A stretch of DNA of 42,683 bases from a virus. The stretch spans positions 1-42,683 of the IMG/VR virus record IMGVR_UViG_3300029620_000016. The stretch is one strand, 5' to 3'. Both the position numbers and the translations under genes were made by a program. Positions 6,710 to 42,683 of this stretch are shown here, piece after piece (the stretch's first letter is position 1; each line of letters starts with the position of its first letter). The notes under the pieces were generated by a model. It did no database searches. It saw only the letters and a program-made list of their open reading frames with translations, and was not told the origin of the DNA.

Positions 6710-7498
6710 CTACCATTTATTACTTCCAGCTTTAATTGTTTTACTCATTGTAATAGCATTTCTACTTAAAATATTAAAATAACTATTTCCAGCGTCAATT
6801 ACATTGTATCCTTTAGCCATAGCATAAATACTAGCTTGTGAAGCTCTATCACATTTAGATAATGCTTTACCTAACTTTGAACCACTACTAATTTCACGAG
6901 AAACACCATTAACAGCACTTCTATAACTAATCACTTTAGCATTAGAATTTAATTTAGCTCTAATGACTGCGGTTCTTTTAATATTACCTTTAGTATTTCC
7001 ATAATAACTTGATTCAGCATAATCATTAGCAAAATAAATACCCCTACCATAAGCCGAACCACCGCTATCAGATACTCTGGTAACTGAACCACGCTGGACT
7101 TGTGATGCAATTGTGTCGGCATCCCACCTCATTCTATTTCGAGTATCGTTAACTGAGTTGACTGTTCTAAATAGTTCAGTTCCATTCATTGTATCAAGCA
7201 CATTATCATCGACCAATTGAGGCTTATCGTTTAGCCCTAAATTATACGTGAATTTTTGAAAATCATTATCCGCTAAAAATGCTGGTACATCTTGAGAAGC
7301 TAAATTTGATATTGCAGTAGCCTTTTGATCATCTGTCATTTTCATAAAATTATCATAATTAGCACTAAAAGCTTGAGCTTGTTGAGTTGTATCAACTTGA
7401 GGTTGTTGTGCTTGAGAATTGGATTTTTGTGTAGCTGCATTAACATTTGGTGCTGATACCCCACCAGTCCTCTTTCCCCCACGTGATGATTTAGCCAT
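6710..7498 (-). CDS. Putative ADP-ribosyltransferase-like protein (PARP-type GxGIYFA motif) with an MAKSSRGG leader
   Basis: SAYGRGIYFANDYAESSYYG resembles the PARP-catalytic GKGIYFAD strand. The N-terminus MAKSSRGGKRTGGVSAPN is paralogous to ORF 7629-8375. The catalytic triad is not fully assignable by eye. Confidence 0.45.
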   Translation of the reverse strand: MAKSSRGGKRTGGVSAPNVNAATQKSNSQAQQPQVDTTQQAQAFSANYDNFMKMTDDQKATAISNLASQDVPAFLADNDFQKFTYNLGLNDKPQLVDDNVLDTMNGTELFRTVNSVNDTRNRMRWDADTIASQVQRGSVTRVSDSGGSAYGRGIYFANDYAESSYYGNTKGNIKRTAVIRAKLNSNAKVISYRSAVNGVSREISSGSKLGKALSKCDRASQASIYAMAKGYNVIDAGNSYFNILSRNAITMSKTIKAGSNKW

Positions 7499-7628: not shown

Positions 7629-8375
7629 TTAAAATGTTTCAACATCTAGAACGATTCTTGGTCTTGAACCTTTATTTCTAGGTGTCGCATATGACCCATC
7701 ATAATGAATGCCTATAATTCTTAAATTAGTCCCCTTATTCATTACAATTTCGCTTTGGGCTTTAGCCCCAAATATAACTTTACTAGTACTTGATGCCTTA
7801 ATATTCATTACAACTTCTCTACCACCACCTAAAGGTTGCCCTGGTGCAAATGGTGATTTCTTAGCGTTATATGACGTACTCATATAAGCTGTTGTCTTTA
7901 ACTCAGTGCCAATTAACTTAGATTGCAATTGTGAATCACTCAATTTTGAATAATCACTTATACCGCACTTTTGTAAAATATCATCATGGCAATATCTTAC
8001 TAAGTTAGTGTCTTTACCTAAGTCATGCATACCATTTTGTAAATTATTATTAATCCATTTTTCAGTTGCATTTAAAGGTAAACCATTATCTAGTTTATAA
8101 TTCATTGATTGGGAATAAGAATAACCTTGACTATCGATTGCATCGGATATATACATTTTTTGAGCTGATACAAAGTCAGGATCTTGATATGAATCAGCGT
8201 TAGCACTTATGATTGCACTTGCATCATTGTCATCCATATTTTGATATGATCTAGTTTGAGTTGTGTTTAAATTTCCAGTTTGTTTAGCTGGTGTATTAGA
8301 TTGGGCTATTGAAGCTCCTTTACCTGGATTCGGTGCAACTCCGCCTCTTCTTCCACCTCTTGAACTTTTAGCCAT
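7629..8375 (-). CDS. ADP-ribosyltransferase, R-S-E (C3/VIP2/Alt-like) clade, with an MAKSSRGG leader
   Basis: Ordered motifs are NLVRYC (Arg), AYMSTSY (STS) and AQSEIVMNKGT (QxE). An upstream YSYSQSMNYKL is also present. Confidence 0.7.
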   Translation of the reverse strand: MAKSSRGGRRGGVAPNPGKGASIAQSNTPAKQTGNLNTTQTRSYQNMDDNDASAIISANADSYQDPDFVSAQKMYISDAIDSQGYSYSQSMNYKLDNGLPLNATEKWINNNLQNGMHDLGKDTNLVRYCHDDILQKCGISDYSKLSDSQLQSKLIGTELKTTAYMSTSYNAKKSPFAPGQPLGGGREVVMNIKASSTSKVIFGAKAQSEIVMNKGTNLRIIGIHYDGSYATPRNKGSRPRIVLDVETF

Positions 8376-9560: not shown

Positions 9561-9590
9561 ACAATATCAACAAATATCAACTTTTGTAAA
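9561..9590 (-). promoter_or_regulatory. Promoter-like conserved 30-mer, copy A, upstream of the late operon
   Basis: The minus strand reads TTTACAAAAGTTGATATTTGTTGATATTGT. It matches 18641-18670 at 25 of 30 positions. Possible -35 TTTACA and -10 TATTGT. Confidence 0.4.
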
Positions 9591-9592
9591 CA

Positions 9593-9616
9593 AAAAAGAC
9601 TAGAAACTAGTTCTAG
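9593..9616 (-). terminator. Weak candidate terminator after the late-activator gene
   Basis: CTAGAA-ctagt-TTCTAG hairpin overlapping the stop codon, followed by TCTTTTTT on the minus strand. The stem is only 6 bp and AT-rich. Confidence 0.3.
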
Positions 9617-9915
9617 CCTTGATTGTAAATATTCAATAATTCTTTTAAACCTTTGATATGTAATGCATGTATCCACTGGCGTGATACTTTCATTTTCTTA
9701 GATATTTCTTTAAAACTAAAGCCATTGATATATCTTAGCATCATGCACATTCTAGCGCTTTTATCATCAATCTTGTGTATGTTGATTCTTAATTGCATCA
9801 CACGTTCAGTTAAGTCATTCAAATTAATATCATCGTTTAATTTTTTAAGTGAATAAGAATACACATCATAAGTGAGTGCATCATCCAACAATCTTTTCAA
9901 CTCTTTCTCAGTCAT
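9613..9915 (-). CDS. Putative late-gene transcriptional activator with a sigma-70 region-4-like HTH, in a RinA/ArpU-like position
   Basis: C-terminal HTH FSFKEISKKMKVSRQWIHALHIKGLKEL. It sits just upstream of the packaging operon. I moved the start to the ATG at 9915 because the GGAGGA SD lies inside the TTG-extended track ORF. Confidence 0.55.
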   Translation of the reverse strand: MTEKELKRLLDDALTYDVYSYSLKKLNDDINLNDLTERVMQLRINIHKIDDKSARMCMMLRYINGFSFKEISKKMKVSRQWIHALHIKGLKELLNIYNQG

Positions 9916-9939
9916 TATTAATCCTCCCAAATTTGAAAA

Positions 9940-10162
9940 GGTAAGGGTTGGAGTTGCTATATTATATATTTATTATTATTTATTATTTTATATATTTTTT
10001 ACTAATTTTTACTATTTTTTCATTAAAAATATATAAATATAAAAGAAAATCGCCTCTTAACTCCAACCCTTACTTTTTTGCCAAAAAAACCAGTTATAAT
10101 CGCATTTTTTGCGGTAAGGGTTCATTGATTTAACACTTACCAACACTTACCCAACACTTACC
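9940..10162 (-). repeat. Cassette C1: decamer-flanked 103-bp AT-rich core. It is the inverted paralogue of 23109-23332.
   Basis: Read on the minus strand: 3x GGTAAGTGTT, 11 nt, CCCTTACC, 39 nt (A6..T7..A6), GTAAGGGTTGGAGTT, 103-bp AT-rich spacer, AACTCCAACCCTTACC. The arms at 9941-9955 and 10059-10073 form a perfect 15-bp inverted repeat. Confidence 0.85.
9961..9966 (-). promoter_or_regulatory. Candidate -10 (TATAAT) inside cassette C1, facing the late-activator gene
   Basis: The minus strand reads aaaTATAATatagcAACTCCAACCCTTACC. No good -35 is seen. Confidence 0.3.
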
Positions 10163-10178
10163 TTTTTAAGATTTTTGA

Positions 10179-10237
10179 GGTAAGAGGTAAGGGTTAAGGT
10201 AAGGGTTGGTAAGGGTTTATAAGCACTAACCCTTACC
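10179..10237. repeat. Extra decamer array flanking C1
   Basis: GGTAAGA, GGTAAGGGTT x3 (starts 10186, 10198, 10208), then an inverted AACCCTTACC at 10228-10237. Confidence 0.85.
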
Positions 10238-10434: not shown

Positions 10435-10613
10435 AGCATAATATATCCTCTCTTTTTAGCTTCATCCCATTCTTGTTTAAAAAATACATCTTCACTAATT
10501 TGAATAATTCCATAACAATCATATTTCCATTTAACTTTAACCACTTCCATACCTTTATGGGTAAGGTAGTTTTCACTATATATTTCTTCGATATAATATT
10601 CTAATAAATTCAT
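10431..10613 (-). CDS. Hypothetical protein (60 aa)
   Basis: Its start overlaps the primase stop. Preferred over the overlapping alternative-frame ORF 10379-10576. Confidence 0.45.
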   Translation of the reverse strand: MNLLEYYIEEIYSENYLTHKGMEVVKVKWKYDCYGIIQISEDVFFKQEWDEAKKRGYIML

Positions 10614-12514
10614 TTCACAAACACACTGTATACCTTTCCATCAATTTTTCGTTGTGTAGTTTTCAGTTCAAACACCTTGCATAACCTCTTACTGAAGCTG
10701 TACTTATTGAGCGCTGATTGGCTACCAGTAAGTGAGCTAGTGTATCTCAAATACACCTCTTGAGATGTTTTGTTTTCAAAATCTTCAACATCTAAACCAT
10801 TAATAAATTGTAAGAAGTTATCATTCTCTATTTCATAATCTTTTAACTGTTCAACACATTTATTTGATTCAGTAAAAGCGTTATGTTCAAGAACTCTCTT
10901 TAGTCCCTCAATACCAATTTTAATGAAATACTCCAAACAAGGTTCTTCAAGTAATTCATACTTAATAAATGGTCTATAATCTGGGTCATCCTTGGTAAAC
11001 TTGGCATCACAAGGGATTATTACAAGTCTTCTAATAACTGCTCCAGTCTTATCACGCATCTTAGGTATTTCATTAGCACTAAAAGTAAATTTAGTATAAG
11101 GATTAAACTCGAATGGATCTAACCCTTTACGCTCAGCTTTAACCCTATCTCCAGTAACTAATTTTTTAAATATAGCCACTGCATTACCAGATAAGAATTC
11201 ATCTCCGATATCATCACCAATATTGGCTAACTTGCCACATAACATAGCAGTGTTAAATCTATCTCTAAGCTCTGATATATCAAGCGCCGAAGTGTTTTCA
11301 TAGCCTAATATAACATTCATTACATTTAAGAATGTAGATTTACCGTTGGATTTATCTCCAGTAAATATAAAGGCTTTACCTAATTCATTTCTTCTATAAA
11401 AGTTATAACCGATATATTCCTCAAATAATGCTCTAACTTGTTTATCTTGGCAAGCTATCTTATTTAAAGTCTTATCAGCTAGTTCACTATATGCATTCGG
11501 ATTATAGTCATGAGGGATTTTGTTAGTAATTACTATATCAGGAGTGTAAGATTCTAAAGTATCAGTAACTAGATTATAAATGCCGTTGTTAAAAGCTATA
11601 TAGTTAGCATTGGCTACCTCTTTAACTGGAGCTATAAGTTCTAGGTATTTAAGCACTTCTTTTCTTTGAGTATCTTTTAAATTAGGAATTAATTCAATCA
11701 TGGCTTTTTGAATTTCCTCATATCCATATTGATAATATCCATCTTTATAGATGTGTAACGCACCATTTACTTTGTAAATATGCTTCTCACTTTGTAAGTA
11801 GCGTGCGAATCGGTCAAACAAAAACGTTGTTTTATCAAAAAATATTGGTTTCTCAAAAGCACCATCCCTAAGTATTGTGTCTAGCTCCGAATCACTCAAT
11901 GGTTTTTCCAAAATATATTTATTAATGATCCTTATACACTCTCTAGCTTCTTCTTTAGTAAATCCATTTGATTGTAATGTAAGAATATAGTTAAATAGTT
12001 TTTGGTTTCTTCCATCTCCTTCATTGAGATTTATAAAGTCATTGTTTGAAACATAACTAAGCCACTTAGGACACGTATCATACTCGGCTTGGGGGTCTTT
12101 ATCCCACAAGACAAAACGCTCCTTATTATCGATTTTAAGCACTTCATATGAGCTTGTACCAACTTTGATATCACTAGGTATTCCACAAGCTAGCGTTTTA
12201 TCAGTAATACATTTTTTATGTACTTCATTATTTTTAAATAATAAATGTATACCACCTCTTGATTCATGGATACGACAGTTAAGCTGTAAATCTTCAACTA
12301 TATCAAGTAATACATCTGATATCTTTCTACCTCTAATCTTGCCATATTTATCATCTATATCAACTAATACAGTGTTATCATTGAGAACTCCAGCGTATTC
12401 TGGTAAGTCTTTAACTTGATCATAAGTTAATAAGTCTTTATTTTTAAACTTCATAGTGGATTTTTTATCTTTGGTGATAATAAATCCACGGTAGAATTCT
12501 TTTAAGTTCATCAT
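10610..12514 (-). CDS. Bifunctional prim-pol (AEP) primase / P4-D5-type SF3 helicase
   Basis: N-terminal AEP motifs VLVDIDD and ESRGGIHLLF. C-terminal Walker A FTGDKSNGKSTF. 634 aa, adjacent to the polymerase. Confidence 0.85.
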   Translation of the reverse strand: MMNLKEFYRGFIITKDKKSTMKFKNKDLLTYDQVKDLPEYAGVLNDNTVLVDIDDKYGKIRGRKISDVLLDIVEDLQLNCRIHESRGGIHLLFKNNEVHKKCITDKTLACGIPSDIKVGTSSYEVLKIDNKERFVLWDKDPQAEYDTCPKWLSYVSNNDFINLNEGDGRNQKLFNYILTLQSNGFTKEEARECIRIINKYILEKPLSDSELDTILRDGAFEKPIFFDKTTFLFDRFARYLQSEKHIYKVNGALHIYKDGYYQYGYEEIQKAMIELIPNLKDTQRKEVLKYLELIAPVKEVANANYIAFNNGIYNLVTDTLESYTPDIVITNKIPHDYNPNAYSELADKTLNKIACQDKQVRALFEEYIGYNFYRRNELGKAFIFTGDKSNGKSTFLNVMNVILGYENTSALDISELRDRFNTAMLCGKLANIGDDIGDEFLSGNAVAIFKKLVTGDRVKAERKGLDPFEFNPYTKFTFSANEIPKMRDKTGAVIRRLVIIPCDAKFTKDDPDYRPFIKYELLEEPCLEYFIKIGIEGLKRVLEHNAFTESNKCVEQLKDYEIENDNFLQFINGLDVEDFENKTSQEVYLRYTSSLTGSQSALNKYSFSKRLCKVFELKTTQRKIDGKVYSVFVK

Positions 12515-14226
12515 ATTATTACTCCAAAATCATTAAGTCTTTTCTTGGCTAAATCTATGTAATATTGTTTATCTAATTTATTTGGGATTTTAGTATCCTT
12601 GATATCTCCATTTAAGATAAACATTTGCTGAGGGGTATTAGCAAACTTCTCTAGTGTAGCACTGTTTTCTTTCATCTTGCCAATATACCCATCAGTCGGA
12701 TCAATAGAAGCAAATACTCTAAATGTTCTATCAGATAAAAACTTAGTTGGTCTATCGTCTGTATACCCAATCCCACCTACTTTATATTTACTAGATACCC
12801 TAACTATTTTTTGGAACTGGATTAAATTAGTACATTCATTAATAGTTTTTTCTACTGGGATATTATAAGCCATATAATTAACTAAAGCTGTGTTTAATAT
12901 TGGTAAGTCATTGTCTAACCTGGATGCTTCTTTAACATAAGCACCTTTACGCTCTAGCTTGTTATCAGTATCTATGAATATATAATTGTTTACATCTTTT
13001 TGATAGATTTCTTTAATATAATCAAATCCTAATCCCATACCAGTTCTACTTTCCCACTCATAGCAAATATCATCAACTTGGTTAAATGCATAATCCGTAT
13101 CAGGAATTCTAAGGATTAAACCATCAGTGTTGGATTGTATTAATTCAAATCCATCTATAACCTCTAATTTTTCAATTAAATCAAGTAATAGAAGCTGACC
13201 ATTAATACAAACGTTATTGGCTTGTCTAGGGTCATACGCTGGATTATATTTATCTTTACAGATTCCATAAGTACCATTTAAGACGATCTTATATGGGGCT
13301 TGTTCTTTCTTTTTACCTTCTTTTTTAAGTTGAACACGCTTATCATAGATTTCTTTAAACTTTTCAGGATGCTTACAATTTCTAGTTAATAAGTTGTATT
13401 TAATCATTAAACTTGGATAGTAAGAAATAACATCAACGTGGATTATTAAACCTTTACCATGATATTTTTCTTTTGCACCGTGTAAGCCACCCCAACCAAA
13501 TACATGTGGAACTCCAGCTACTTCTATTTCAAGATTCTTTGTGTAATCCCCTTTGTTCTGCATGAACCAATCTTCAACATACGAATACTTAGATAATCTA
13601 AGCGTTGGAACTATTGATATATCCCATTCATCATTTCTTTGTTGTGGTTCACATTCTAGGATTAAAGCACTCATTTGAGCCTTTGTTTTGGATATGTTGG
13701 ATATGTTTAGATTAAAGGTTTTAATTAAGTCCATAGCGCTATTAAAATCGTTTATACGCTCAATAAATACCTCTATTAAGTTATCAACATCATCTTCACA
13801 ATAACCGAATGTTTCTTTAACTTCTTTAGGCGTAAGCGGTCTTTTAATATCGAATGGAACTGAGGTTTCATGGATATTATTGCCCATATAACCTTCAAGT
13901 TGTTTTAAACTATGCATTGTAGTCATTACATCATAGTTTAATACTGGGAACTCTCTCATCATCGAATTAAACTGCCATCCAGATTTTCCTTTTACGATTA
14001 TCCAATCATTCATTTTCTTAGGGTTAAAGCCACAAAGAATTGATTTTAATATGAATTGGTCATAACCTCTAGAGTTATAACCACACCATATATCGTTTTT
14101 GTTTTCATTGTAATATTTAAGTAAAGCTTCATTATCATTATGAATTTTAGTTGTAGTTCTTGTTTCTGGATTTTTGAGTACAACTAACCAGTCATACTCG
14201 AATACTTCAAAATCATAAAATATCAT
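12511..14226 (-). CDS. Family-B DNA polymerase with a 3'-5' exonuclease domain
   Basis: Exo motifs FYDFEVF, GYNSRGYDQFIL and YCEDDVDNL. Pol motifs HVDVISYYPSL (A), KIVLNGTYG (B) and QSNTDGL (C). Confidence 0.8.
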   Translation of the reverse strand: MIFYDFEVFEYDWLVVLKNPETRTTTKIHNDNEALLKYYNENKNDIWCGYNSRGYDQFILKSILCGFNPKKMNDWIIVKGKSGWQFNSMMREFPVLNYDVMTTMHSLKQLEGYMGNNIHETSVPFDIKRPLTPKEVKETFGYCEDDVDNLIEVFIERINDFNSAMDLIKTFNLNISNISKTKAQMSALILECEPQQRNDEWDISIVPTLRLSKYSYVEDWFMQNKGDYTKNLEIEVAGVPHVFGWGGLHGAKEKYHGKGLIIHVDVISYYPSLMIKYNLLTRNCKHPEKFKEIYDKRVQLKKEGKKKEQAPYKIVLNGTYGICKDKYNPAYDPRQANNVCINGQLLLLDLIEKLEVIDGFELIQSNTDGLILRIPDTDYAFNQVDDICYEWESRTGMGLGFDYIKEIYQKDVNNYIFIDTDNKLERKGAYVKEASRLDNDLPILNTALVNYMAYNIPVEKTINECTNLIQFQKIVRVSSKYKVGGIGYTDDRPTKFLSDRTFRVFASIDPTDGYIGKMKENSATLEKFANTPQQMFILNGDIKDTKIPNKLDKQYYIDLAKKRLNDFGVII

Positions 14227-14250: not shown

Positions 14251-15417
14251 TTACCCATTGAGTAATACACCTTTACTTCCCGTCATATTCTCCCAACGAT
14301 TTATTATAGTATCAACGTATCTTGGATCTAATTCCATTATTCTAGCGTTACGGTTTAATTGTTCACTTACCATTAGAGTTGTACCGCTACCTCCGAATAA
14401 ATCTAATACTATATCACCTTTTTCAGTACTATTTTTCATTTGATATGCGAATAAATCTAAAGGTTTCATAGTTGGATGCAATTCACTTTTACTTGGTTTA
14501 TTAAACTCTAATACAGTTGTTTGCTTTCTATCACTATACCAGCTATGACTAGCACCATCTTTCCAACCGTATAAGCAAGGCTCGTGTTTCCACTGATAAT
14601 CTTGTCTACCCATAACCATTACATTTTTATTCCATATTAAACATTGTCTAACTTTCCAATCAACTTCTTTACAAGCACTTCTAAAGTTATAACCCTCACT
14701 ATCAGCGTGCCATATATAAAATGATGCTCCATTTTTCATAACGTCATTAGCATTACTAAATGCATCTGTTAAAAATCGCTTGAATTGACTATCTTCCATA
14801 CTATCGTTTTTTATTTTAAGTGAATCTTTAGTTTTACCCTCATAATCAACGTTGTATGGAGGATCAGTTAGCAATAAATCGGCTTTGTCATCATTCATTA
14901 ATTTTTCGACATCATCTGATATAGTTGCGTCTCCACACATCAAACGGTGGTTTCCTAGCTGGTATATATCACCGTATTTAGCTTTGGGTTCTTCTGGAAC
15001 TTCAGGTACTTCATCTTCTATCACTTTTGGTTCTTCTTCATCAATTGACAAATCGAATCCAAAATCCATCATATCTATATCAACAATAGAATTTAATTCT
15101 TCAGCTAATATTTCAAAGTCCCATTCACTCTCAGCACTTTTATTGTGAGCTAGTGTGTAGGCTTTCCTTTGTTCTTCACTCAGATGATCCAATCTGATTA
15201 TTGGGGCTTCTTTATAACCCAATTTCTTTAAAGCCATTAATCTTCCATGACCTTCAATTATTAAGTTATCTTCTCCCCAAACTCCTATTGGGTCGCACAT
15301 CCCAAATTCTTTTATGCTGTTTGCTATTCTTTTAACTTGTTCTTTAGGATGCTTTTTTGCATTTTTATGGTATTTCTTTAAATCATTGATATTTACATAT
15401 TCAATTTTTAAATTCAT
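14251..15417 (-). CDS. ParB-like N-terminal domain fused to a DNA methyltransferase (N6-adenine or N4-cytosine, DPPY type)
   Basis: ParB-like N-terminus (NAKKHPKEQVKRIANSIKEFG...IEGHGRLMA...EQRKAYTLAHNK). Catalytic LLLTDPPYNVDY, with the SAM-binding DLFGGSGTT at the C-terminus. Confidence 0.85.
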   Translation of the reverse strand: MNLKIEYVNINDLKKYHKNAKKHPKEQVKRIANSIKEFGMCDPIGVWGEDNLIIEGHGRLMALKKLGYKEAPIIRLDHLSEEQRKAYTLAHNKSAESEWDFEILAEELNSIVDIDMMDFGFDLSIDEEEPKVIEDEVPEVPEEPKAKYGDIYQLGNHRLMCGDATISDDVEKLMNDDKADLLLTDPPYNVDYEGKTKDSLKIKNDSMEDSQFKRFLTDAFSNANDVMKNGASFYIWHADSEGYNFRSACKEVDWKVRQCLIWNKNVMVMGRQDYQWKHEPCLYGWKDGASHSWYSDRKQTTVLEFNKPSKSELHPTMKPLDLFAYQMKNSTEKGDIVLDLFGGSGTTLMVSEQLNRNARIMELDPRYVDTIINRWENMTGSKGVLLNG

Positions 15418-18580: not shown

Positions 18581-18640
18581 ATTTAAGTATAGCCACTTCC
18601 TTTTGATTTGATATTCATATTTCCTCCTTTCTAGTATCAA

Positions 18641-18670
18641 TTAATATCAATTAATGTCAACTTTTGTAAA
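18641..18670 (-). promoter_or_regulatory. Promoter-like conserved 30-mer, copy B, upstream of the recombination genes
   Basis: The minus strand reads TTTACAAAAGTTGACATTAATTGATATTAA. It matches 9561-9590 at 25 of 30 positions. Confidence 0.4.
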
Positions 18671-22609: not shown

Positions 22610-22650
22610 TTTTAAAAATATTAGTTGGGTTTTGAAAGGTGGTGATAAAT

Positions 22651-23109
22651 ATGGAAACCAACAAAAAATTACAAGAACTAAGAAAACTCAAGGGTTATAG
22701 TCAATCAGAGCTAGCTAACTTAGTCGGTGTATCCAGAAGTGCAATTGCTGGATATGAAAATGGTTACACTCAACCAAGCTTAGAGATACTTTGCAAGTTA
22801 TGTGAGATATTCGACATATCCATAGATTCATTAATGGATTTTGACAACATAAATCCTCATAAAGATAAAGTTTTAAAAAGGTCAAATATAAGAGCTATCA
22901 AACCTAAAAAAGTACGTAAAGATAGATCAATTGAAATTAAACAAGTTGTTGTTATAGAAGTAGATAAAGTTTTAGACAATCTATATGAAGAAATGATTAA
23001 AGCCCACACAGTCAGTATCAATAAAAAAGATTTAACTAAGGAACAAAAAGAGTTTGTTTTAAAAATAATCAAAAACACTAACCAATTACTAAATGAGCTT
23101 TATGCTTAG
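22651..23109 (+). CDS. cI-like XRE-family repressor with no recognisable S24 peptidase domain
   Basis: HTH YSQSELANLVGVSRSAIAGYENG. It is divergent from the cro-like gene. Start moved to the ATG at 22651, with SD AAAGGTGGTGA. Confidence 0.75.
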   Translation: METNKKLQELRKLKGYSQSELANLVGVSRSAIAGYENGYTQPSLEILCKLCEIFDISIDSLMDFDNINPHKDKVLKRSNIRAIKPKKVRKDRSIEIKQVVVIEVDKVLDNLYEEMIKAHTVSINKKDLTKEQKEFVLKIIKNTNQLLNELYA

Positions 23110-23332
23110 GTAAGGGTTGGTAAGGGTTGGTAAGTGTTATTTTGATAAACCCTTACCTTAAAAAAGCTAGATTTCATCGGACTTTTTACGAAAAAGGTAA
23201 GAGGTAAGTGTTAATAGTTAATTTCTTTTATATATTATTTATAAAATTATTAAATTATGGAAATCATTATAATGAATACATATATAATATAAATAATAAA
23301 GAAATATATAATAGTAACTCTTACCACTTACC
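23109..23332 (+). repeat. Cassette C2, the inverted paralogue of 9940-10162
   Basis: GGTAAGGGTT, GGTAAGGGTT, GGTAAGTGTT, 11 nt, CCCTTACC, 39 nt (A6..T5..A5), GTAAGAGGTAAGTGTT, 103-bp AT-rich spacer, AACTCTTACCACTTACC. The segment lengths match C1. Confidence 0.85.
23307..23312 (+). promoter_or_regulatory. Candidate -10 (TATAAT) inside cassette C2, facing int
   Basis: aaaTATAATagtAACTCTTACC, homologous to the C1 arrangement. Confidence 0.3.
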
Positions 23333-23400
23333 TTTTTTATCAAAAATCGGACTTTTTAGCTTAAAAAGGCTAAAAATTGACTAAAAATATCATTTTTTAA

Positions 23401-23472
23401 GGTAAGAGTTTGTATAAAAAACACTTACTTTAACCCTTACCGAACACTTACCAACTCTTACTAACACTTACT
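23401..23472. repeat. Decamer array abutting the int ribosome-binding site
   Basis: GGTAAGAGTT at 23401. Then five AAC(A/C/T)CTTAC(C/T) units starting at 23420, 23432, 23443, 23453 and 23463, spaced 10-12 bp. Confidence 0.85.
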
Positions 23473-23494: not shown

Positions 23495-24607
23495 ATGGCA
23501 CAAATATCAACACGTAAGAGAGGTAATACATGGGAGTATAGTTTTGAAATAGCATCTGTTGATGGAAAACGTAAAAGAAAATCAAAAGGTGGATTTAGAA
23601 CTAAAAAAGAATGTTTAGAAGCTGGAACTAAAGCTAAAGCTGAATATGACAGTTGTGGAACAGTTAATAATGAAACAATGATGTCAGTTAGTGACTGGTT
23701 AGATATTTGGTATAAAGATTGTATTGATAAAAGATATAAACCAGCTACTAAAGAAACTTATAACTCAGTTATTAGACAGATAAAAAGACAGTTTGGTAAT
23801 TATAGATTAGCTTCTTTAACACCACTTGCAATAAATAAATGGTTCAATGAGTTAATTGATGAAGGTTATGCTACTAGTACTGTTAGAAATGTTAGAAGAA
23901 TCTTAAATGGAGCTTTAAATTATGCATATCAAATGTGTGTTATTAAAGAGAATCCATGCTCTAGAGTTAGAATTAAAACTTCAGATTCAGAAAAATTTAA
24001 AAATACATTAATAGTTACACCTGATTTATTTGAAAAGATATTAAAAAAATTTGATACTAAAGTAACTTATTATAGAATACCATTTCTTATTGGTTGGTTC
24101 ACTGGTATGAGAGGTGGTGAAGTATTAGGTTTAACTTGGGATGATATTGATTTTGAAAATAAAACTATTCATGTATGTAAAACTCAAACATGGGCATTTA
24201 ATCAAATTCATATACATTATCCAAAGACACCAAGATCAGTACGTGATATAGCAGTTGGAGATAAGCTTATAAATGAATTAAAAGCCTGGAGAGAGGTTCA
24301 AATAGACAACGCTAATAAATTAGATATGGAAGCTCCTAAATTCATTTGTACAAGAAATAATTTAACATTATTAAGCGTTATTAATTTAAGACACCAAAGT
24401 ATGTCAGTTGCTAGAGAATTGGATATAGATTTTCACTTTCATTGTTTAAGACATACTCATGCTACACTGTTAATAAAGAATGGAGTATCTGTTAAAGAAG
24501 TTCAAGCTAGATTAGGTCATACATCTATACAAACAACATTAGATATTTATACTCATATTAAAGCATCTGAAAGTATAAAATCAGTTGATGTTTTTGAAAA
24601 TTTTTAA
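23495..24607 (+). CDS. int: Tyrosine recombinase / phage integrase
   Basis: N-terminal SAM-like domain. Catalytic residues in GMRGGEVLGLTW (R), HCLRHTHATLL (H-x-x-R) and LGHTSIQTTLDIYTH (H...Y). Confidence 0.9.
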   Translation: MAQISTRKRGNTWEYSFEIASVDGKRKRKSKGGFRTKKECLEAGTKAKAEYDSCGTVNNETMMSVSDWLDIWYKDCIDKRYKPATKETYNSVIRQIKRQFGNYRLASLTPLAINKWFNELIDEGYATSTVRNVRRILNGALNYAYQMCVIKENPCSRVRIKTSDSEKFKNTLIVTPDLFEKILKKFDTKVTYYRIPFLIGWFTGMRGGEVLGLTWDDIDFENKTIHVCKTQTWAFNQIHIHYPKTPRSVRDIAVGDKLINELKAWREVQIDNANKLDMEAPKFICTRNNLTLLSVINLRHQSMSVARELDIDFHFHCLRHTHATLLIKNGVSVKEVQARLGHTSIQTTLDIYTHIKASESIKSVDVFENF

Positions 24608-24985: not shown

Positions 24986-25600
24986 ATGACAACATTATTA
25001 GTAAATTTCACTGAAAGCGAAAAACAAGGAAGAAGATTTATTTATACCGATTACAAAGATGTGGTGGTATATAAGGAAAAAGAAAATGATAAAACTGTAT
25101 TTGTTAAAGAAGTTAATCATAGAAAAAATTTATCATCTTTAAATATTAGAATTGAATTAGATGGAAAAAGAACTAAAGAAGAATTATTAAAAGCTATTAA
25201 AAGAAGAACCCAAAAATATGAAAGAGAACAAAAAGCTAAAGAAACAATGATAAAAAACGATTTCAAAAAAGCTTTAAATATTACTAAATTGTCTAAAAAA
25301 TATGAACAATTATTAAGTATCTATGAAAGAATTTATAACGAAGAAAATCATAATGGAATAATTAATATTCTTTCTTCTTTTAAAAAAATTAACAAATCGC
25401 CTTATTCTTCATCGTTTTATGATAGTGATGATATTGGTTGGGATTCTAAACCTGAAGGCTCATTAAGATTGTCCGACCATTGGAACTTTTACTCTTGGGG
25501 AGAACAACACTGTTGCTTAGATAGTACTAAAGAATATACTCGAAAATGGTTATTATGCCAATATAATAACGGTGTTTATCACGTAGTTAAAGAACTTTAG
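24986..25600 (+). CDS. Hypothetical protein (204 aa) with a Lys-rich helical middle and a Trp/Cys/His-rich C-terminal domain
   Basis: Strong SD (AAAGGAGG). C-terminal LRLSDHWNFYSWGEQHCCLDSTKEYTRKWLLCQY. No family recognised. Confidence 0.55.
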   Translation: MTTLLVNFTESEKQGRRFIYTDYKDVVVYKEKENDKTVFVKEVNHRKNLSSLNIRIELDGKRTKEELLKAIKRRTQKYEREQKAKETMIKNDFKKALNITKLSKKYEQLLSIYERIYNEENHNGIINILSSFKKINKSPYSSSFYDSDDIGWDSKPEGSLRLSDHWNFYSWGEQHCCLDSTKEYTRKWLLCQYNNGVYHVVKEL

Positions 25601-25618
25601 TAGAAAGGAGAAAATAAA

Positions 25619-25888
25619 ATGACAACTAAAGAATTTATGACTTTACCTTCAAACTCTGATAAAACTTTTTTTAAAAGTCATGTCACGGCTGTTGAAACTT
25701 TGAATTTATTAGAGAAAAAAGGAATCGAAAACATTAAAATTTATGATTATTTCATGGATTTTATTTATGAAGGTAAAATTAGAGAAGCGTATCGCTTTTT
25801 AAACGATATGTATTTGGATGATGAAACGAAAGGATGTATTGTTGGTTGTTTTAAAAATACCAACGCTTCAATTTATATAGGTATTTAA
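25619..25888 (+). CDS. Hypothetical protein (89 aa)
   Basis: SD GAAAGGAG. Island operon. Confidence 0.5.
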   Translation: MTTKEFMTLPSNSDKTFFKSHVTAVETLNLLEKKGIENIKIYDYFMDFIYEGKIREAYRFLNDMYLDDETKGCIVGCFKNTNASIYIGI

Positions 25889-25890
25889 AA

Positions 25891-26100
25891 ATGTATTACG
25901 ATAATCTTGGAAAACTTTTATTAAATCTCATTTGCTATTATAAATTAGCTGATGGAGAATTAATCATAATTGAAACTAAAGAAGAAACTTACTTAGAAAA
26001 GACAATTGTTAAAGCCGTAGAGCGTTGTGCTGGTTTATACTTGTTTGATTGCCCTTGTAAAGTGGTAGTTGATAAAAATATTTGGATTAAAATTTTATAA
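25891..26100 (+). CDS. Hypothetical protein (69 aa)
   Basis: Starts 2 nt after the upstream stop. No clear SD. Confidence 0.45.
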   Translation: MYYDNLGKLLLNLICYYKLADGELIIIETKEETYLEKTIVKAVERCAGLYLFDCPCKVVVDKNIWIKIL

Positions 26101-26112
26101 AGAAGATGCGAT

Positions 26113-26502
26113 ATGTGGAAAAATATTCAAATTAACAAACAAAATATTAAAGCTGAAACTATGAAAGCAGTATTAATCCAGATGCCACACAATTCAAATT
26201 ACGATGGTTTCAGTTTCTGGCATCCTTCAAAATTAGTAAGAACTGGCTACAATTCAAACGCTTTAAGTATTGGTTATAATGATGATTTTACTTTTAAATT
26301 AATTAAGCAGGGTAAAGGTAAATATAATTCAAGAGATATTATAGCTGAAGAAGTAATAGATGTTGAAGAATTTGAAGAAGCTTTTGGAGTAATGAATGAA
26401 AATATTACTGCCCCTCATACAAAAAATATTTATGAAACTCATAAACCAGCTCCACTGGAAGTAAAAGAAGTTTCAGTATTGGATGAATTAAAAGATGAAT
26501 AA
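26113..26502 (+). CDS. Hypothetical protein (129 aa)
   Basis: Its end overlaps the SNF2 start by 8 nt. Motif AVLIQMPHNS..FSFWHPSKLV. No family recognised. Confidence 0.5.
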   Translation: MWKNIQINKQNIKAETMKAVLIQMPHNSNYDGFSFWHPSKLVRTGYNSNALSIGYNDDFTFKLIKQGKGKYNSRDIIAEEVIDVEEFEEAFGVMNENITAPHTKNIYETHKPAPLEVKEVSVLDELKDE

Positions 26503-27709
26503 TCAAGAAATTGCCTTTGAGAAACTATCTAAGTTAAAAGTCGGTGCTTTGTTCATGGAAATGGGCACTGGTAAAACAAAAGTTGCACTTGATTTGATAG
26601 CTTCTAAAAAAGATAAAGTTAATTACATTCTTTGGATTTGCCCATTTTCAATTAAACAAGAAATCGAACAAGAACGCCTAAAATGGCATCCTGAGCTAAA
26701 AATAGACATTATAGGTGTTGAAACCATTTCACAAAGTAGTAAAGAATACTTAAGAGTTTTCAACAAAGTAATTGAATCAAAATCATTCATTGTAGTGGAT
26801 GAAAGTCTTAAAATTAAGAACATGAGTGCCAAAAGAACTAAGCGGATACTTAAGCTTGGAAGCTATGCCAAGTACAAGCTTATCTTAAATGGTACACCTC
26901 TATCAAAAAATATCCTTGATTTATACCCTCAAATGGAATTTCTCTCCCCAAAAATACTCAATATGTCTATTACTCAATTCCGAAATCAGTATTGCGAATA
27001 TTACCTTCAAGGAAGACTTAAAAACAAGGTTAAAAAACAATATAACATTGAACATCTAGTTTCACTTATAAAGCCCTATATATTTGATAGTAAACTAGAT
27101 CTTGGCAAGGATAAAACTTATCACAAAATAAATTACTCAATTGAAGACTTGGAAGAATATGAAAATATTAAACATAACTTCCTTGGATTTGATAATGATA
27201 TGGCATTCTTCTCTTTAGTTACACTGCTCCAGAAGCATTACTGCACTCAAAAAAGTAGACTTGAGCTAATAAGAAAAACAATAGATTCAATCGATGGACA
27301 AGTGATAGTATTTGTTAAATATCTGGATAGTATCCCTAGTGAAGAAACTCATAAGATTATTGGTGAAATGAACGATTCTAAAAGAGATATTATCATCCAG
27401 GGATTTAGAGAAGGTAAATTTAAAACACTGTACATAACTTATGGTTGTGGTTCATTCGGATTAAATTTGCAAAATTGCCGAAACATTATATTTGCTGATC
27501 ATACTTTTGACTATTCTCAACGAATTCAAGCTGAAGCTAGGATATTTAGAATCGGTCAAGAATATGATGTAAATTACTATGATATGAATTGTAATTGTGG
27601 ATTGGACAAACTTATCCGTGGGTGCTTAAATAAAAAAGTTAAATTACTTGATGAAGTTAAAGAAGAAATTGAAAAGAAAGGAGTTGAAGAATGGCTAAAA
27701 ACTATTTAG
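26495..27709 (+). CDS. Minimal SNF2-family ATPase (island copy)
   Basis: MGTGKTKVA (I), IVVDESLKIKN (II), ILNGTP (III), QAEARIFRIGQ (VI). 404 aa with no accessory domains. Confidence 0.75.
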   Translation: MNNQEIAFEKLSKLKVGALFMEMGTGKTKVALDLIASKKDKVNYILWICPFSIKQEIEQERLKWHPELKIDIIGVETISQSSKEYLRVFNKVIESKSFIVVDESLKIKNMSAKRTKRILKLGSYAKYKLILNGTPLSKNILDLYPQMEFLSPKILNMSITQFRNQYCEYYLQGRLKNKVKKQYNIEHLVSLIKPYIFDSKLDLGKDKTYHKINYSIEDLEEYENIKHNFLGFDNDMAFFSLVTLLQKHYCTQKSRLELIRKTIDSIDGQVIVFVKYLDSIPSEETHKIIGEMNDSKRDIIIQGFREGKFKTLYITYGCGSFGLNLQNCRNIIFADHTFDYSQRIQAEARIFRIGQEYDVNYYDMNCNCGLDKLIRGCLNKKVKLLDEVKEEIEKKGVEEWLKTI

Positions 27710-28965
27710 ATAAAAATGTATATCAGTTAGCACTAGAACGTATAGCTTATTTATTTAATGAGTTTGACAATGTTCTAGTTGCTTTTAGCGGTGGAAAAGA
27801 TAGTAGTGTATGCCTTGAGCTATGTTATGATTATGCTAAGGAAAATGGCTTATTAAATAAATTGTCAATGTATCATCTTGACTATGAAGCTCAATACCAA
27901 ATGACAACTGATTTTGTGGATGAAACATTTAAAAGATATCCGAATATTAAAAGATATTGGCTTTGTTTACCGATTAAAGCTCAATGTTGTACTAGTATGA
28001 CAGCTGGATACTGGATTCCATGGGAAGAATCTAAAAAAGCTATCTGGGTTAGGAAAATGCCTACATATGATTATGTTATCAATCAACATAATTGCCAATT
28101 TAATTACCATGGTTTTGATTATGATGTTCAAGATAGATTTTGTGATTGGTTTAAATCAAAACACGGTAAAACAGCCGTTGTAATAGGAATAAGAACGGAT
28201 GAATCATTAAACCGATTTAGGGCAATAGCAAGTGACCATGCTATTAAATATAAAGGCAAATCATGGATTAATGGAAATAAAGCTTACCCTATTTATGATT
28301 GGCACGTTCAAGATGATTGGATATATTTTGGAAAGTTTGCTAAGCGATACAATAAGTTATATGATTTGTACTATCAAGCTGGGCTAAGCGTTGACCAAAT
28401 GAGAGTAGCAAGTCCATTTAATGATTGCGCATCAAACACTTTAAAACTCTATAAGGTTATTGATCCAAATAACTGGGGAAAGATGATTGGTAGAGTTAAC
28501 GGTGTTAATTTTACCGCTATTTATGGTGGAACTATTGCTATGGGATGGAATAAAATAACTAAACCTAAAGATTTCACATGGAAGCAATATTGCTATTTTT
28601 TGCTCAACACTTTGGATGAAAAAACAAAGCAACATTACTTAAACAAATTAAACACTTCAATTAAGTTTTGGAAAGATAAAGGCGGTTGTTTAAGCGATGA
28701 AACAATTAAAGAATTGCAAAAAGACAACATTAATTATATAGATAAAGGCTATACCAGTAATTATAGTACCAATAAAAAAGTAATTGCATTTAATGACTAT
28801 TTAGATGATACAAATGTAACCAATTTTAAAGAATTACCAACATATAAACGTATGTGTATTTGTATAATTAAAAATGACTATTATTGTAAATATATGGGCT
28901 TTAGCCAAACCAAAAATGAAATAGAGAAAAGAAAGAGAGCTATAGAAAAATATGCAAAATTATAA
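27691..28965 (+). CDS. PP-loop ATP-pyrophosphatase of the PAPS-reductase / DndC / IbrA-like family
   Basis: PP-loop VAFSGGKDSSV near the N-terminus. IGIRTDES. Long C-terminal extension, as in IbrA-type proteins. Overlaps the SNF2 gene by 19 nt. Confidence 0.8.
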   Translation: MAKNYLDKNVYQLALERIAYLFNEFDNVLVAFSGGKDSSVCLELCYDYAKENGLLNKLSMYHLDYEAQYQMTTDFVDETFKRYPNIKRYWLCLPIKAQCCTSMTAGYWIPWEESKKAIWVRKMPTYDYVINQHNCQFNYHGFDYDVQDRFCDWFKSKHGKTAVVIGIRTDESLNRFRAIASDHAIKYKGKSWINGNKAYPIYDWHVQDDWIYFGKFAKRYNKLYDLYYQAGLSVDQMRVASPFNDCASNTLKLYKVIDPNNWGKMIGRVNGVNFTAIYGGTIAMGWNKITKPKDFTWKQYCYFLLNTLDEKTKQHYLNKLNTSIKFWKDKGGCLSDETIKELQKDNINYIDKGYTSNYSTNKKVIAFNDYLDDTNVTNFKELPTYKRMCICIIKNDYYCKYMGFSQTKNEIEKRKRAIEKYAKL

Positions 28966-29464
28966 ATCACCAGTTTACAATGTTAAAGCTGTACCAATAG
29001 AAAAAATTCAAGCAAATGCTTATAACCCCAATCATGTCGCCGTGCCAGAAATGAAGCTTCTTTATAAGTCAATTCTTGAAGATGGATATACTATGCCAAT
29101 AGTGTGTTATTATCTTAAAGATCAAGATAAATATGAAATTGTAGATGGATTCCATAGATATAGAACAATGCTGGAACACAAGGATATTTACGAACGTGAA
29201 AATGGATGTCTTCCAGTAGTTGTAATTGATAAAGATTTATCCAATAGAATGGCTTCAACCATCCGCCATAATAGAGCTAGAGGTTCACATTCGATTGAAT
29301 TAATGACTAATATAGTTGCTGATTTAGTTAAGAGTGGAATGTCGGATGCATGGATTATGAAAAATATAGGTATGGATGCTGATGAGCTTCTGAGGCTGAA
29401 GCAGATAAGCGGATTGGCAGAGTTGTTCAAAGACAAGGACTTCAGCAAGGGATGGGATAAATAG
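28952..29464 (+). CDS. ParB/sulfiredoxin-fold protein, IbrB/DndB-like
   Basis: IEKIQANAYNPN, VDGFHRYRT and STIRHNRARGSH motifs. 170 aa. Overlaps the PP-loop gene by 14 nt. Confidence 0.75.
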   Translation: MQNYKSPVYNVKAVPIEKIQANAYNPNHVAVPEMKLLYKSILEDGYTMPIVCYYLKDQDKYEIVDGFHRYRTMLEHKDIYERENGCLPVVVIDKDLSNRMASTIRHNRARGSHSIELMTNIVADLVKSGMSDAWIMKNIGMDADELLRLKQISGLAELFKDKDFSKGWDK

Positions 29465-29683
29465 ATGAAAACAACTAAACGGCAACAAAAGTTTCTAGAT
29501 AAGCTATATGCAAACTATACTGACACAAATAACATATACCCTAAGAGTATGAGCGATAGCGAGTTTATAAAACTTATCACGGATTATTTTCTAGGCGAAG
29601 ACTACTATATTGCTAGCCCTGTGTCACAAGGACAAGCAAATGTGATTATTGCTATAGAAATTATAAGGAGTAATAGACACTGA
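29465..29683 (+). CDS. Hypothetical protein (72 aa), last gene of the island
   Basis: Starts immediately after the ParB-like stop and ends at a TGA just before the terminator. Confidence 0.5.
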   Translation: MKTTKRQQKFLDKLYANYTDTNNIYPKSMSDSEFIKLITDYFLGEDYYIASPVSQGQANVIIAIEIIRSNRH

Positions 29684-38398: not shown

Positions 38399-39388
38399 TT
38401 AAGCTTTAAACTTAGCTAAAACTACTTTAGCACCATTTGTTAATGCAACACCATAGTACTTAGCTGTTGTAACATCATGTTGTTGCTTCTTTGGAAGCCA
38501 TTCACTATCAGTTTGAGTATCTTTCTTTAAGAAGATAGTTAAAGCTGGTAATTCATCTTCTGTGTATTCAGTTTCAGCTGAATCTGGTTCAAGCTTAATA
38601 ACTGGACATACATAATATTGAGAACCTTTGGCAATTGCTTTAAGACCATTGCCAACTTCAAGTTTAACAGTTGGATCAACTTTAGCTTGATATTCAGCTA
38701 AGTTTGAAGCATCAATAGTAACTGTACTACCTGATTCAACTTTTTCATAAGTAACAAGTCTAACTTTCTTGGACTTTTTAACCCAAGCACCAGCGATTTT
38801 ACCAATAGAACCGTTAACTGCAACACCAGCTTGGTATTTATCAGCTGAGATAAAGTTACTATCTTTTAAAAGTGTAGCTTCTTGACTTGGGTGGATAAAC
38901 ATAACTTTATCAATTCCATCTTCTTCATCTTCAAACTTACAATTGGCATCAACAATACCACTATAAGAGATGTTAGATGTACCTTCACCAGCTACCATAG
39001 TTGCTTTATAAACTGCTTCTAATACATCGTTATCAACTTTACCAGCAATAGATTTAGCTAATTGAGAACCAGCTTGTCCAACTGGGTCGCCATAACCAGA
39101 GTTAATAGCTTCTTGAGTAATTGATACCGACTTCATAGCCTTTTTGATTGTAAAAGTTGTGCTAGAAGCTGTCATTTGGGTTGGTGTAACTTCAACACCT
39201 TCAGCAACATCTTCAGCATCACCAATATAATTCCAAGATGGTACTGTTTTTGTATCCCCTGGGACACCAACTAAAGTTGTATCGACTTTAGCATATGGTG
39301 TTAATTTTAATAGTGCTTCAATTTTTGCATTGAGCATATCACCCATGACTTGTGGGTTGATCATTTGATCCATTTTTGTAACTGCCAT
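38399..39388 (-). CDS. Major capsid protein
   Basis: 329 aa, directly after the scaffold gene, strong SD. Confidence 0.75.
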   Translation of the reverse strand: MAVTKMDQMINPQVMGDMLNAKIEALLKLTPYAKVDTTLVGVPGDTKTVPSWNYIGDAEDVAEGVEVTPTQMTASSTTFTIKKAMKSVSITQEAINSGYGDPVGQAGSQLAKSIAGKVDNDVLEAVYKATMVAGEGTSNISYSGIVDANCKFEDEEDGIDKVMFIHPSQEATLLKDSNFISADKYQAGVAVNGSIGKIAGAWVKKSKKVRLVTYEKVESGSTVTIDASNLAEYQAKVDPTVKLEVGNGLKAIAKGSQYYVCPVIKLEPDSAETEYTEDELPALTIFLKKDTQTDSEWLPKKQQHDVTTAKYYGVALTNGAKVVLAKFKA

Positions 39389-41514: not shown

Positions 41515-42593
41515 GAGGATGCCTCACTTGTTGTAATAGTTAATGTTCCAGTAGTGGAATCAAAAGTTACGGTTGGGGTAATAGCTTCATAAGTACCAGT
41601 TACACCACCTATATTAATGTCTTTTTTAATGTTTTCAGCCGTTAAAGTGGATGGTTTAGTAATGGTTACTTGAGATAGTGTTTTACCGCTTGTGGGAGTG
41701 ATTACTTGATTACCACTTGCCATTGATAAATCAACCGTCTTAGTCTCTTCAACTGGTGCTGGCACGTTTACCACTGCACTAGCATAATTAGTTACATCAT
41801 ACGTTCCATTAGCTGTTATGTCTAAACTTCCAGTTGGAGTAATTCCATTACTTGTATATGTGCCAGTAACTCCACCGATATTTACACCACTTTTAACATT
41901 TTCGGCAGTTAAATTTGGAAGCCCCAGAAGTGTATAATTTTCACCAGCGAATACAATTCTATTTCCATCACCTTCAAAGTCAATATTGTTGTTATATTCA
42001 ATTATTACTTCAGGTTTATTGGTTGGGGTATTTATATAAATGTCAGTGTATTTTGAGGGTAAGCCACTACCAAGTGTTATCATTGTGTCAGTTAGAGTTA
42101 CACCTGGTAAATCACATGTATGAGTACCAGTTAATTTAACACCATTTACATATGCAGTCTTTCCACTTAATATGTCTGATTGTGTAGCATTTGCGTCTGA
42201 AGTATCAACTTTAGATCCACTTGAGCCACCACTCATAGAACTGAGTGTATTTTTTATACTGGTAAGTTTTGTGTTGGTTTGTGTTAAGGTTTCATTATTT
42301 GTGTTTAAATTTACATTAATTGCATCTGCGATTTTAGTAGAAATTGTTAATGTATCAGCTGTTAGTACGTTATATGAAAAAGTGTTATCTGTAAAAGGAA
42401 TGTTTCCAAGATTTGATGAGGTTATGGATTTTATAGCATATCCAGTTTTTAAAGTTACTGAAAAATTAGAAGTGCCTAAAGGAACGGAACTAATTTGTCC
42501 GCTAGTTGTGAAATACATTTCAACTGGGATTGATATGTCAACTTGCTCTACGCCAGTATCAAAATTAATTTTTAACTTTACTAATGTCGGCAT
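41511..42593 (-). CDS. Fibre-like protein with three copies of the '..ENIK..INIGGVTGTY' module
   Basis: SDILSGKTAYVNGVKLTGTH, LTAENVKSGVNIGGVTGTY and LTAENIKKDINIGGVTGTY. The same module type is in ORF 364-1413. Its first 9 nt recur at window positions 1-9. Confidence 0.6.
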   Translation of the reverse strand: MPTLVKLKINFDTGVEQVDISIPVEMYFTTSGQISSVPLGTSNFSVTLKTGYAIKSITSSNLGNIPFTDNTFSYNVLTADTLTISTKIADAINVNLNTNNETLTQTNTKLTSIKNTLSSMSGGSSGSKVDTSDANATQSDILSGKTAYVNGVKLTGTHTCDLPGVTLTDTMITLGSGLPSKYTDIYINTPTNKPEVIIEYNNNIDFEGDGNRIVFAGENYTLLGLPNLTAENVKSGVNIGGVTGTYTSNGITPTGSLDITANGTYDVTNYASAVVNVPAPVEETKTVDLSMASGNQVITPTSGKTLSQVTITKPSTLTAENIKKDINIGGVTGTYEAITPTVTFDSTTGTLTITTSEASS

Positions 42594-42683
42594 TTTCCAC
42601 TTCCTTTCATTAATATTTTATACTAAAATTTCAATAAATTAAATAGTTTCTTCTTTTTTAGGATTTGATAAAACGTGCATCCA
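42585..42683. repeat. Terminal direct repeat, copy 2. It duplicates the 5' end of the 41511-42593 gene, the intergenic region and the 3' end of the 55-351 gene.
   Basis: Identical to bases 1-99. Confidence 0.95.

Follow-up and report, generated by a model that had tools for sequence, protein, structure and literature searches.

In P4, the elements ori and crr are reportedly separate cis elements that carry the same repeats. The P4 repeats are octamers. P4 crr does not duplicate ori, being made up instead of a pair of direct 120-bp repeats that lack an origin-like core. The origins of SaPIs contain repeats located just downstream of rep around an AT-rich center, with no fewer than two on either side, which run in opposite directions and are read by a C-terminal winged helix; the sequence of these repeats is element specific and is matched to the C-terminal domain (PMC9371898). 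The initiator of SPP1 binds two short, distant regions, oriL and oriR, with comparable affinity, and in each of these regions, repeat boxes lie beside an AT-rich unwinding element (PMC5737612). This initiator, G38P, is an unrelated replisome organizer that needs a separate loader and helicase; oriL is located inside gene 38, and neither of the SPP1 origins is tied to integrase or late-regulator genes. SPP1 oriL/oriR and P4 ori/crr are precedents for one initiator acting at two distant sites, but neither is a colinear duplicate located beside int.

Here, we describe two repeat cassettes, C1 and C2, in the genome of a temperate phage and present the case that both are probably iteron-type origin elements, the repeats of which would be read by the C-terminal winged helix of the phage primase-helicase. 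The DNA that was analyzed (the window) is a stretch of 42,683 nt, positions 1 to 42,683 of the IMG/VR record IMGVR_UViG_3300029620_000016. Its ends are identical over 99 nt (1-99 and 42585-42683), indicating a circular assembly of a 42,584-bp genome, with a G+C content of ∼31%. The late genes are encoded on the minus strand from 9915 across the junction to 29940, such that the late operon spans the junction, and the early and replication genes occupy the minus strand from 22487 to 10258. No tRNA genes were found in the window, and neither was any Rfam family, so that a known RNA was rejected as the identity of the cassettes. GC skew was set aside as evidence for an origin because it tracks gene orientation.

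Several other features of the genome were recorded. Between int and the lysis genes lies a variable accessory island (24986-29683), much shorter in the phage represented by contigs L001 and L083, that encodes an SNF2-like helicase, a PAPS-reductase/DUF3440 protein with a ParB_N partner, and a homolog of the anti-Thoeris protein Tad8 (29465-29683). Two adjacent late-region genes on the minus strand (6710-7498 and 7629-8375) share the N terminus MAKSSRGG... and resemble paralogs. Repeats of a separate motif, TTGATATT, occur on a 10-bp phase (4 matches versus 0.44 expected): one set, at 9563-9580 on the minus strand, follows the terminator of the late-regulator gene (9620-9596) and precedes the late operon, and another, at 18633-18660 on the same strand, lies ahead of a 632-aa early gene. 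L001 retains the motif (12585-12615), and these repeats may serve as late or middle promoters or as binding sites of an activator.

The proposed initiator, a primase-helicase of 634 aa, scores 182 bits against TIGR01613, the C-terminal model of the P4-family primases (curated cutoff, 108.7), and its helicase region matches that of SaPI5 PriRep5 (PDB 7OLA, the identity of which was confirmed) with an E value of 2e-35. Judging by these matches, the protein is a P4-family primase and SF3 self-loading helicase homologous to PriRep5. A profile built from the last 120 residues matches the C-terminal domain of PriRep5 (residues 672-747; E = 0.0015) and, weakly, the RFX winged helix (E = 0.65). A single-sequence AlphaFold model of the C-terminal domain shows a helix-helix-strand-strand arrangement at low confidence (pLDDT of 44).

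The two cassettes are located ∼13 kb apart. C1 separates the end of the early operon from the late-activator gene, and C2 the end of the repressor gene from int. C1 is found 373 nt past the stop codon of the primase-helicase gene, with two small open reading frames (ORFs) in between; C2, 10.6 kb upstream of the start of that gene, extends from the last base of the repressor stop codon to the int ribosome-binding site. Along the minus strand, C1 consists of an extra repeat block, a tandem block, a 39-nt segment of A and T tracts, a left arm, a core, and a right arm (Table 1). In both cassettes, three tandem decamers are followed by 11 nt and then CCCTTACC, and the arms differ in length by a single nucleotide between C1 and C2 (15 versus 16 nt on the left and 16 versus 17 nt on the right). 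The core of C1 is flanked on each side by one clear and one degenerate repeat. C2 also contains an inverted repeat, I1, with 60-nt arms that are 72% complementary. The repeat units are 10 nt long and are set on a 10-bp phase, although the invariant part might be shorter (GTAAG). The inverted appearance of the cassettes follows from the divergence of their transcription units, to which both are oriented in the same way. The 39-nt segments of the window fold no better than shuffled sequences (z = −0.3 and −0.7), whereas the one from L083 does (z = −4.6); the segment may act as a terminator or hairpin.

Table 1. Positions of the two cassettes, their parts, and the adjoining genes in the window, with the single cassettes of two GenBank phages
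Feature	Position	Strand	Description
Late regulator gene	9613..9915	-	Sigma-70 region 4-like; adjoins C1 downstream
Cassette C1, putative origin-type element	9940..10237	-	11 oriented GGTAAG(G/T)GTT repeats
C1 extra repeat block	10179..10237	-	1 forward decamer, then 4 reverse
C1 tandem block	10113..10162	-	3 head-to-tail decamers, 11 nt, 1 inverted decamer
C1 three tandem decamers	10162-10132	-	
C1 39-nt segment	10112-10074	-	
C1 left arm; right arm	10074-10059; 9955-9940	-	Inward-pointing repeats flanking the core
C1 AT-rich core	9956..10058	-	103 bp; ∼9-10% G+C; putative DNA unwinding element
Primase-helicase	10610..12514	-	PriRep-like, P4 family, 634 aa; D5_N, DUF5906, SF3 helicase
Primase-helicase C terminus, putative winged-helix domain	10613..10837	-	∼75 residues; PriRep5 profile match and covariation
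cI-like repressor	22639-23109	+	
Cassette C2, putative second origin-type element	23109..23472	+	14 oriented repeats
C2 tandem block	23109..23157	+	3 head-to-tail decamers, 11 nt, 1 inverted decamer
C2 three tandem decamers	23109-23138	+	
C2 39-nt segment	23158-23196	+	
C2 core flanks	23196-23212; 23316-23332	+	2 forward repeats; 2 reverse repeats
C2 AT-rich core	23213..23315	+	103 bp; ∼9% G+C
C2 extra repeat block	23401..23472	+	1 forward and 5 reverse decamers, against the int ribosome-binding site
Tyrosine integrase (int)	23495..24607	+	Adjoins C2 downstream; Arm-DNA-bind_4 domain
Wanderer cassette	L324 (NC_054985.1) 38523-38783		Repeats GTAACAGA; absent from annotation
PI-Sepi-HH2 cassette	L325 (MT880871.1) locus 14701-15000		Repeats CATAAGACA, 9 copies; absent from annotation

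The pairing of the cassettes is well beyond what shuffled sequences produce. With at most one mismatch, GGTAAGKGTT occurs 32 times in the window, compared to 4.38 ± 2.1 times in shuffled versions (none of 100 shuffles reached 32), and 24 of the 32 matches fall within the two clusters. Global alignment of the reverse complement of C1 with C2 gave 73.5% identity over 238 columns. The 103-nt spacers, which are free of decamers, aligned with a z score of 4.3 relative to dinucleotide shuffles, none of 3,000 of which reached the observed score; for the 39-nt segments, the z score was 3.3, with 4 of 2,000 shuffles reaching the observed score. Thus, the colinearity put forward in the original prediction stands up to formal alignment. 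The layout of segments that it laid out was recovered element by element, including the spacer of exactly 103 nt in both copies and the end of C1 24 nt before the ATG at 9915; it left out, however, the extra repeat block of each cassette, and that of C2, next to int, falls beyond its coordinates. The suggestion that the conserved segment lengths reflect a constrained nucleoprotein geometry appears reasonable. A megablast search of both regions against GenBank phages returned no match, and the exact 20-mer of the tandem decamers was absent from IMG/VR.

Cassettes of this kind are common among relatives of the phage. A scan of IMG/VR with the 634-aa primase-helicase identified 80 relatives, about 45 of which have a repeat cluster 0.05 to 2 kb downstream of the primase gene; in L001, the distance is 38 nt. 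Across the clade, the layout consists of tandem repeats, forward repeats, an AT-rich core of ∼80 to 105 bp with conserved edges, reverse repeats, and then the next gene, with a repeat sequence that is specific to the phage (GGTTACGGTT, GTTACAGTT, TCTACGGTT, GGTAACGGTT, and CACAGATG, among others). The original prediction turned in part on whether related phages keep both copies, and they do: the L001/L083 phage, the primase of which is 90% identical to that of the window, carries both cassettes in the same places, with the repeat GGTAACAGTT in both, and a distant relative also has both copies, with GGTTACGGTT. The repeats of the L001/L083 phage are of the GTAAC type (11 and 12 copies), compared to the GTAAG type in the window (11 and 14 copies); both cassettes have changed repeat type together. 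The order repressor-cassette-int, that is, a cassette in the position of C2, recurs in at least 19 related loci. An E-type C2 was seen in contig L316, and a repeat-pattern search for the L013 phage gave its C1 alone.

Two phages in GenBank, Paenibacillus phage Wanderer (NC_054985) and Staphylococcus epidermidis phage PI-Sepi-HH2 (MT880871), encode primase-helicases that are 42 to 45% identical to that of the window, within the same gene order, and each contains one cassette of repeats and an AT-rich core directly after the primase gene. Judging from this arrangement, these cassettes are probable origins that are missing from the records. Neither phage has a cassette before int, where gaps of 77 nt and 46 nt leave no room for one. 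The copy downstream of the primase gene thus appears to occupy the ordinary position of a PriRep-type origin, whereas C2, a complete second copy between the repressor gene and int, seems to be the novel part and to be specific to the clade of the window. No account of a second copy of the origin next to int in phages of this kind turned up in a literature search.

Several contigs show variant arrangements. Comparison with L284 and L064 shows that a C2-type cassette in L280 (12100-12440) is mosaic and has a left half matching the C2 of another phage, a right half matching a C1, and a breakpoint inside the AT-rich core, which indicates that C1-type and C2-type copies exchange sequence. In the contig designated L276, L053, or L302 (IMGVR_UViG_3300029716_000068), which starts inside a cassette beside the repressor gene, the order primase-cassette-int replaces primase-cassette-late regulator; because the contig starts inside a repeat, this junction may equally be a misassembly. 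In L169, int and the late-regulator gene diverge from a single cassette. These two arrangements are either rare recombinants between the copies or repeat-induced misassemblies. Finally, in two compact loci, L131 (IMGVR_UViG_3300029537_000161) and L195 (CAJSZV010000031.1), int, the repressor gene, and the primase-helicase gene are found within ∼3 to 5 kb, without a cassette before int; L131 has a single cassette after the primase gene. Both may be satellite-like relatives.

To identify the protein that the repeats follow, repeats and proteins were compared across ∼130 related loci. The repeat sequence tracks the last ∼35 to 60 residues of the primase-helicase, although common ancestry is a partial confounder of this covariation among lineages. 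Two loci that are ∼95% identical over 16 kb, L013 and L031, offer a much closer comparison. Each carries 7 to 8 copies of its repeat, GGTAACGGTT in L013 and GGTTACGGTT in L031, and every copy differs consistently between the two (GTAAC versus GTTAC). Residues 1 to 600 of their primase-helicases are ∼100% identical, and only the last 34 differ (76% identity); the DNA between the diverged tail and the diverged repeats, as well as that on both outer sides, is 98 to 100% identical. The two loci also differ in a 176-aa ORF upstream of the primase gene, for which the window has no counterpart. Among ∼28 types of C terminus, V or A occupies position 14 after the FSK anchor where the repeats are GTTAC or CTAC, and Q, C, T, or P where they are GTAAC or GTAAG, without exception; this position would lie in the wing of the putative C-terminal winged helix. 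G and A variants at position 6 of the repeat are mixed inside single cassettes, indicating that this specificity switch is soft.

The other proteins considered as readers of the repeats were rejected. A given late regulator can accompany different repeats, and a given repeat different late regulators; one class of repeats accompanies two unrelated types of integrase, which do not match each other at an E value of 1e-5 or below, and at least three types of small terminase; the same repeats are found with repressors that are 43 to 100% identical, and the cI/cro operators, of the TTGTCAAT type, are unlike the cassette decamers in sequence; and no diverged ParB gene is present within 16 kb in L013 and L031. 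Of the binders listed in the original prediction, the comparative data single out the C terminus of the primase, and the repeats do not follow the cI-like protein, the Cro-like protein, or the integrase.

A bipartite replication origin is the closest of the three roles initially proposed, in view of the initiator family, the layout, and the covariation of the repeats with the primase tail. Also in favor of the origin reading are the conserved position of the cassettes, their joint switching of repeat type, and the recurrence of the C2-type copy. Like SaPI5 PriRep5, the phage protein combines helicase and C-terminal domains in a homologous initiator; C1 is positioned, as in SaPIs and PICIs, just downstream of the initiator gene, and both cassettes share with those origins an AT-rich center flanked by inward-pointing repeats. 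The differences are that the SaPI and PICI repeats are 6 to 12 penta- or hexanucleotides whereas the phage cassettes consist of 11 and 14 units of 10 nt; that C2 does not lie next to the initiator gene; that SaPIs are satellites whereas the element described here is a full temperate phage; and that the phage has a second complete copy 13 kb away, beside int. As in P4, with ori and crr, two cis elements carry the same repeats, but the phage elements are colinear paralogs, each with its own AT-rich core. Counted against the origin reading are the 10-nt units on a 10-bp phase, compared to 5 to 6 nt in SaPIs, the distance of 10.6 kb between C2 and the 5′ end of the initiator gene, and the GenBank relatives that manage with one cassette where the window phage has two.

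Under the origin reading, the early operon would produce the primase-helicase after induction or infection, and the C-terminal domains of this protein would attach to the decamers flanking the 103-bp core. Two hexamers would load in a head-to-head arrangement and carry out core melting, priming, and unwinding. C1, just past the initiator gene, would be the canonical origin, and C2 a full paralogous copy, kept under selection to bind the same initiator, that would serve either as a second firing origin or as a cis-acting initiator-binding site. As the initiator changes, the repeats of C2 change with it, whereas the remainder of the cassette drifts, which argues for selection on initiator binding at C2. 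The role of C2 may be that of a second origin, of a site for initiator titration or handcuffing, of a control site, or of a gate on int expression.

The other roles considered for the cassettes each explain part of the data. If they were paralogous promoter/operator cassettes, as originally suggested, the cores would contain the promoters of the late-regulator gene and int, and a single DNA-binding protein of the phage, which might be the primase-helicase in a regulatory capacity, would use the decamers as operators, perhaps with looping. The last repeat of each cassette does abut the ribosome-binding site of a regulatory gene, 8 to 37 nt from the downstream start codon in both cassettes and across the clade, a feature that a pure origin need not have and that gives a hint of some function in transcription; the cassettes keep a fixed polarity with respect to transcription, and there is a conserved TATAAT-like block at the right edge of the core. 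However, a consensus sigma-70 promoter directed toward the downstream gene is present in neither core, whereas the cI/cro region has near-perfect divergent promoters (12/12 and 11/12 matches to the sigma-70 consensus), and the repeats track the tail of the initiator and no transcription factor. Furthermore, in the GenBank relatives, a cassette follows the primase gene but none precedes int, and the layout fits a published type of origin (PMC9371898). A role as promoters and operators is therefore unlikely, although initiator binding may have a secondary regulatory effect. The third role proposed at the outset, that of inverted sites at which recombination would flip the early segment of 12.9 kb, draws on the inverted orientation of the cassettes, the long similar stretches that they share, the exchange of C1-type and C2-type segments inside the core of mosaic cassettes, and the one contig with a primase-cassette-int junction. 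But this junction, which begins inside the repeat, the signature of a repeat-induced assembly break, was seen in only 1 of ∼60 loci, no dedicated invertase gene is present, the cassettes do not behave like sites of an integrase, and the repeats track the initiator rather than a recombinase. Inversion would also put the late regulator downstream of the repressor gene, resulting in its expression in lysogens. As a programmed switch, inversion is unsupported and very unlikely.

In their size of roughly 230 bp and their tandem and inverted 10-bp sites, the cassettes resemble bacteriophage lambda attP. Given this resemblance, the arm-binding domain of the integrase, and the location of C2 next to int, the decamers could be arm-type sites of the integrase and the AT-rich core the crossover site. 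Against this assignment, an integrated relative (L191, on a 174-kb contig of a Lachnotalea metagenome-assembled genome) retains an intact cassette flanked by the repressor module and int, and host genes (uracil-5 methyltransferase and PcrA) begin 133 nt after int; the attL/attR split expected of attP is absent from this relative, which stands in here for the phage itself. A scan of genome contigs with the window integrase yielded no close relative (best match, 38% identity). Moreover, C1 is far from int, only the C1-type cassette is present in Wanderer and PI-Sepi-HH2, and, as noted above, the same repeats coexist with two unrelated types of integrase. Identity with attP is hardly credible on this evidence. 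Still less credible is a function as pac/cos packaging or parS partition sites, bound by the small terminase or a ParB-domain protein. The phage encodes three ParB_N-domain proteins, the cassette is located ∼0.5 kb upstream of terS in some relatives, and L013 and L031 differ in a linker segment of terS; yet the same small-terminase allele is found with five classes of repeats, in addition to the converse pairing and the lack of a diverged ParB gene described above, and terS of the window lies 3.4 kb away from C1.

The origin reading leaves room for regulation by the initiator itself. It is possible, but rather doubtful, that the initiator acts as a developmental timer that occupies, and then fires from, both cassettes, gating the late activator and int, in which case the second cassette would serve regulation and not extra initiation. 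If so, late transcription, as well as excision or integration, would be tied to the start of replication, a coupling that can be likened to that of SV40 T-antigen at its origin.

The location of the probable origin, so far unannotated in the records examined, was placed from sequence alone, and the placement covers a large clade of temperate phages of gut and rumen Clostridia along with relatives from Paenibacillus and Staphylococcus. L013 and L031 are natural near-isogenic specificity swaps that tie one putative wing position to one base of the repeat, providing a testable recognition rule for self-loading SF3 initiators. The duplication of the cassette leads to contig breaks and possible misjoins in metagenome assemblies, which matters for virome catalogs. 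A single cassette would be of a known kind, and it is the conserved second copy beside the integrase gene that appears unusual; it raises the question of why a temperate phage would keep two origins that bracket its early region.
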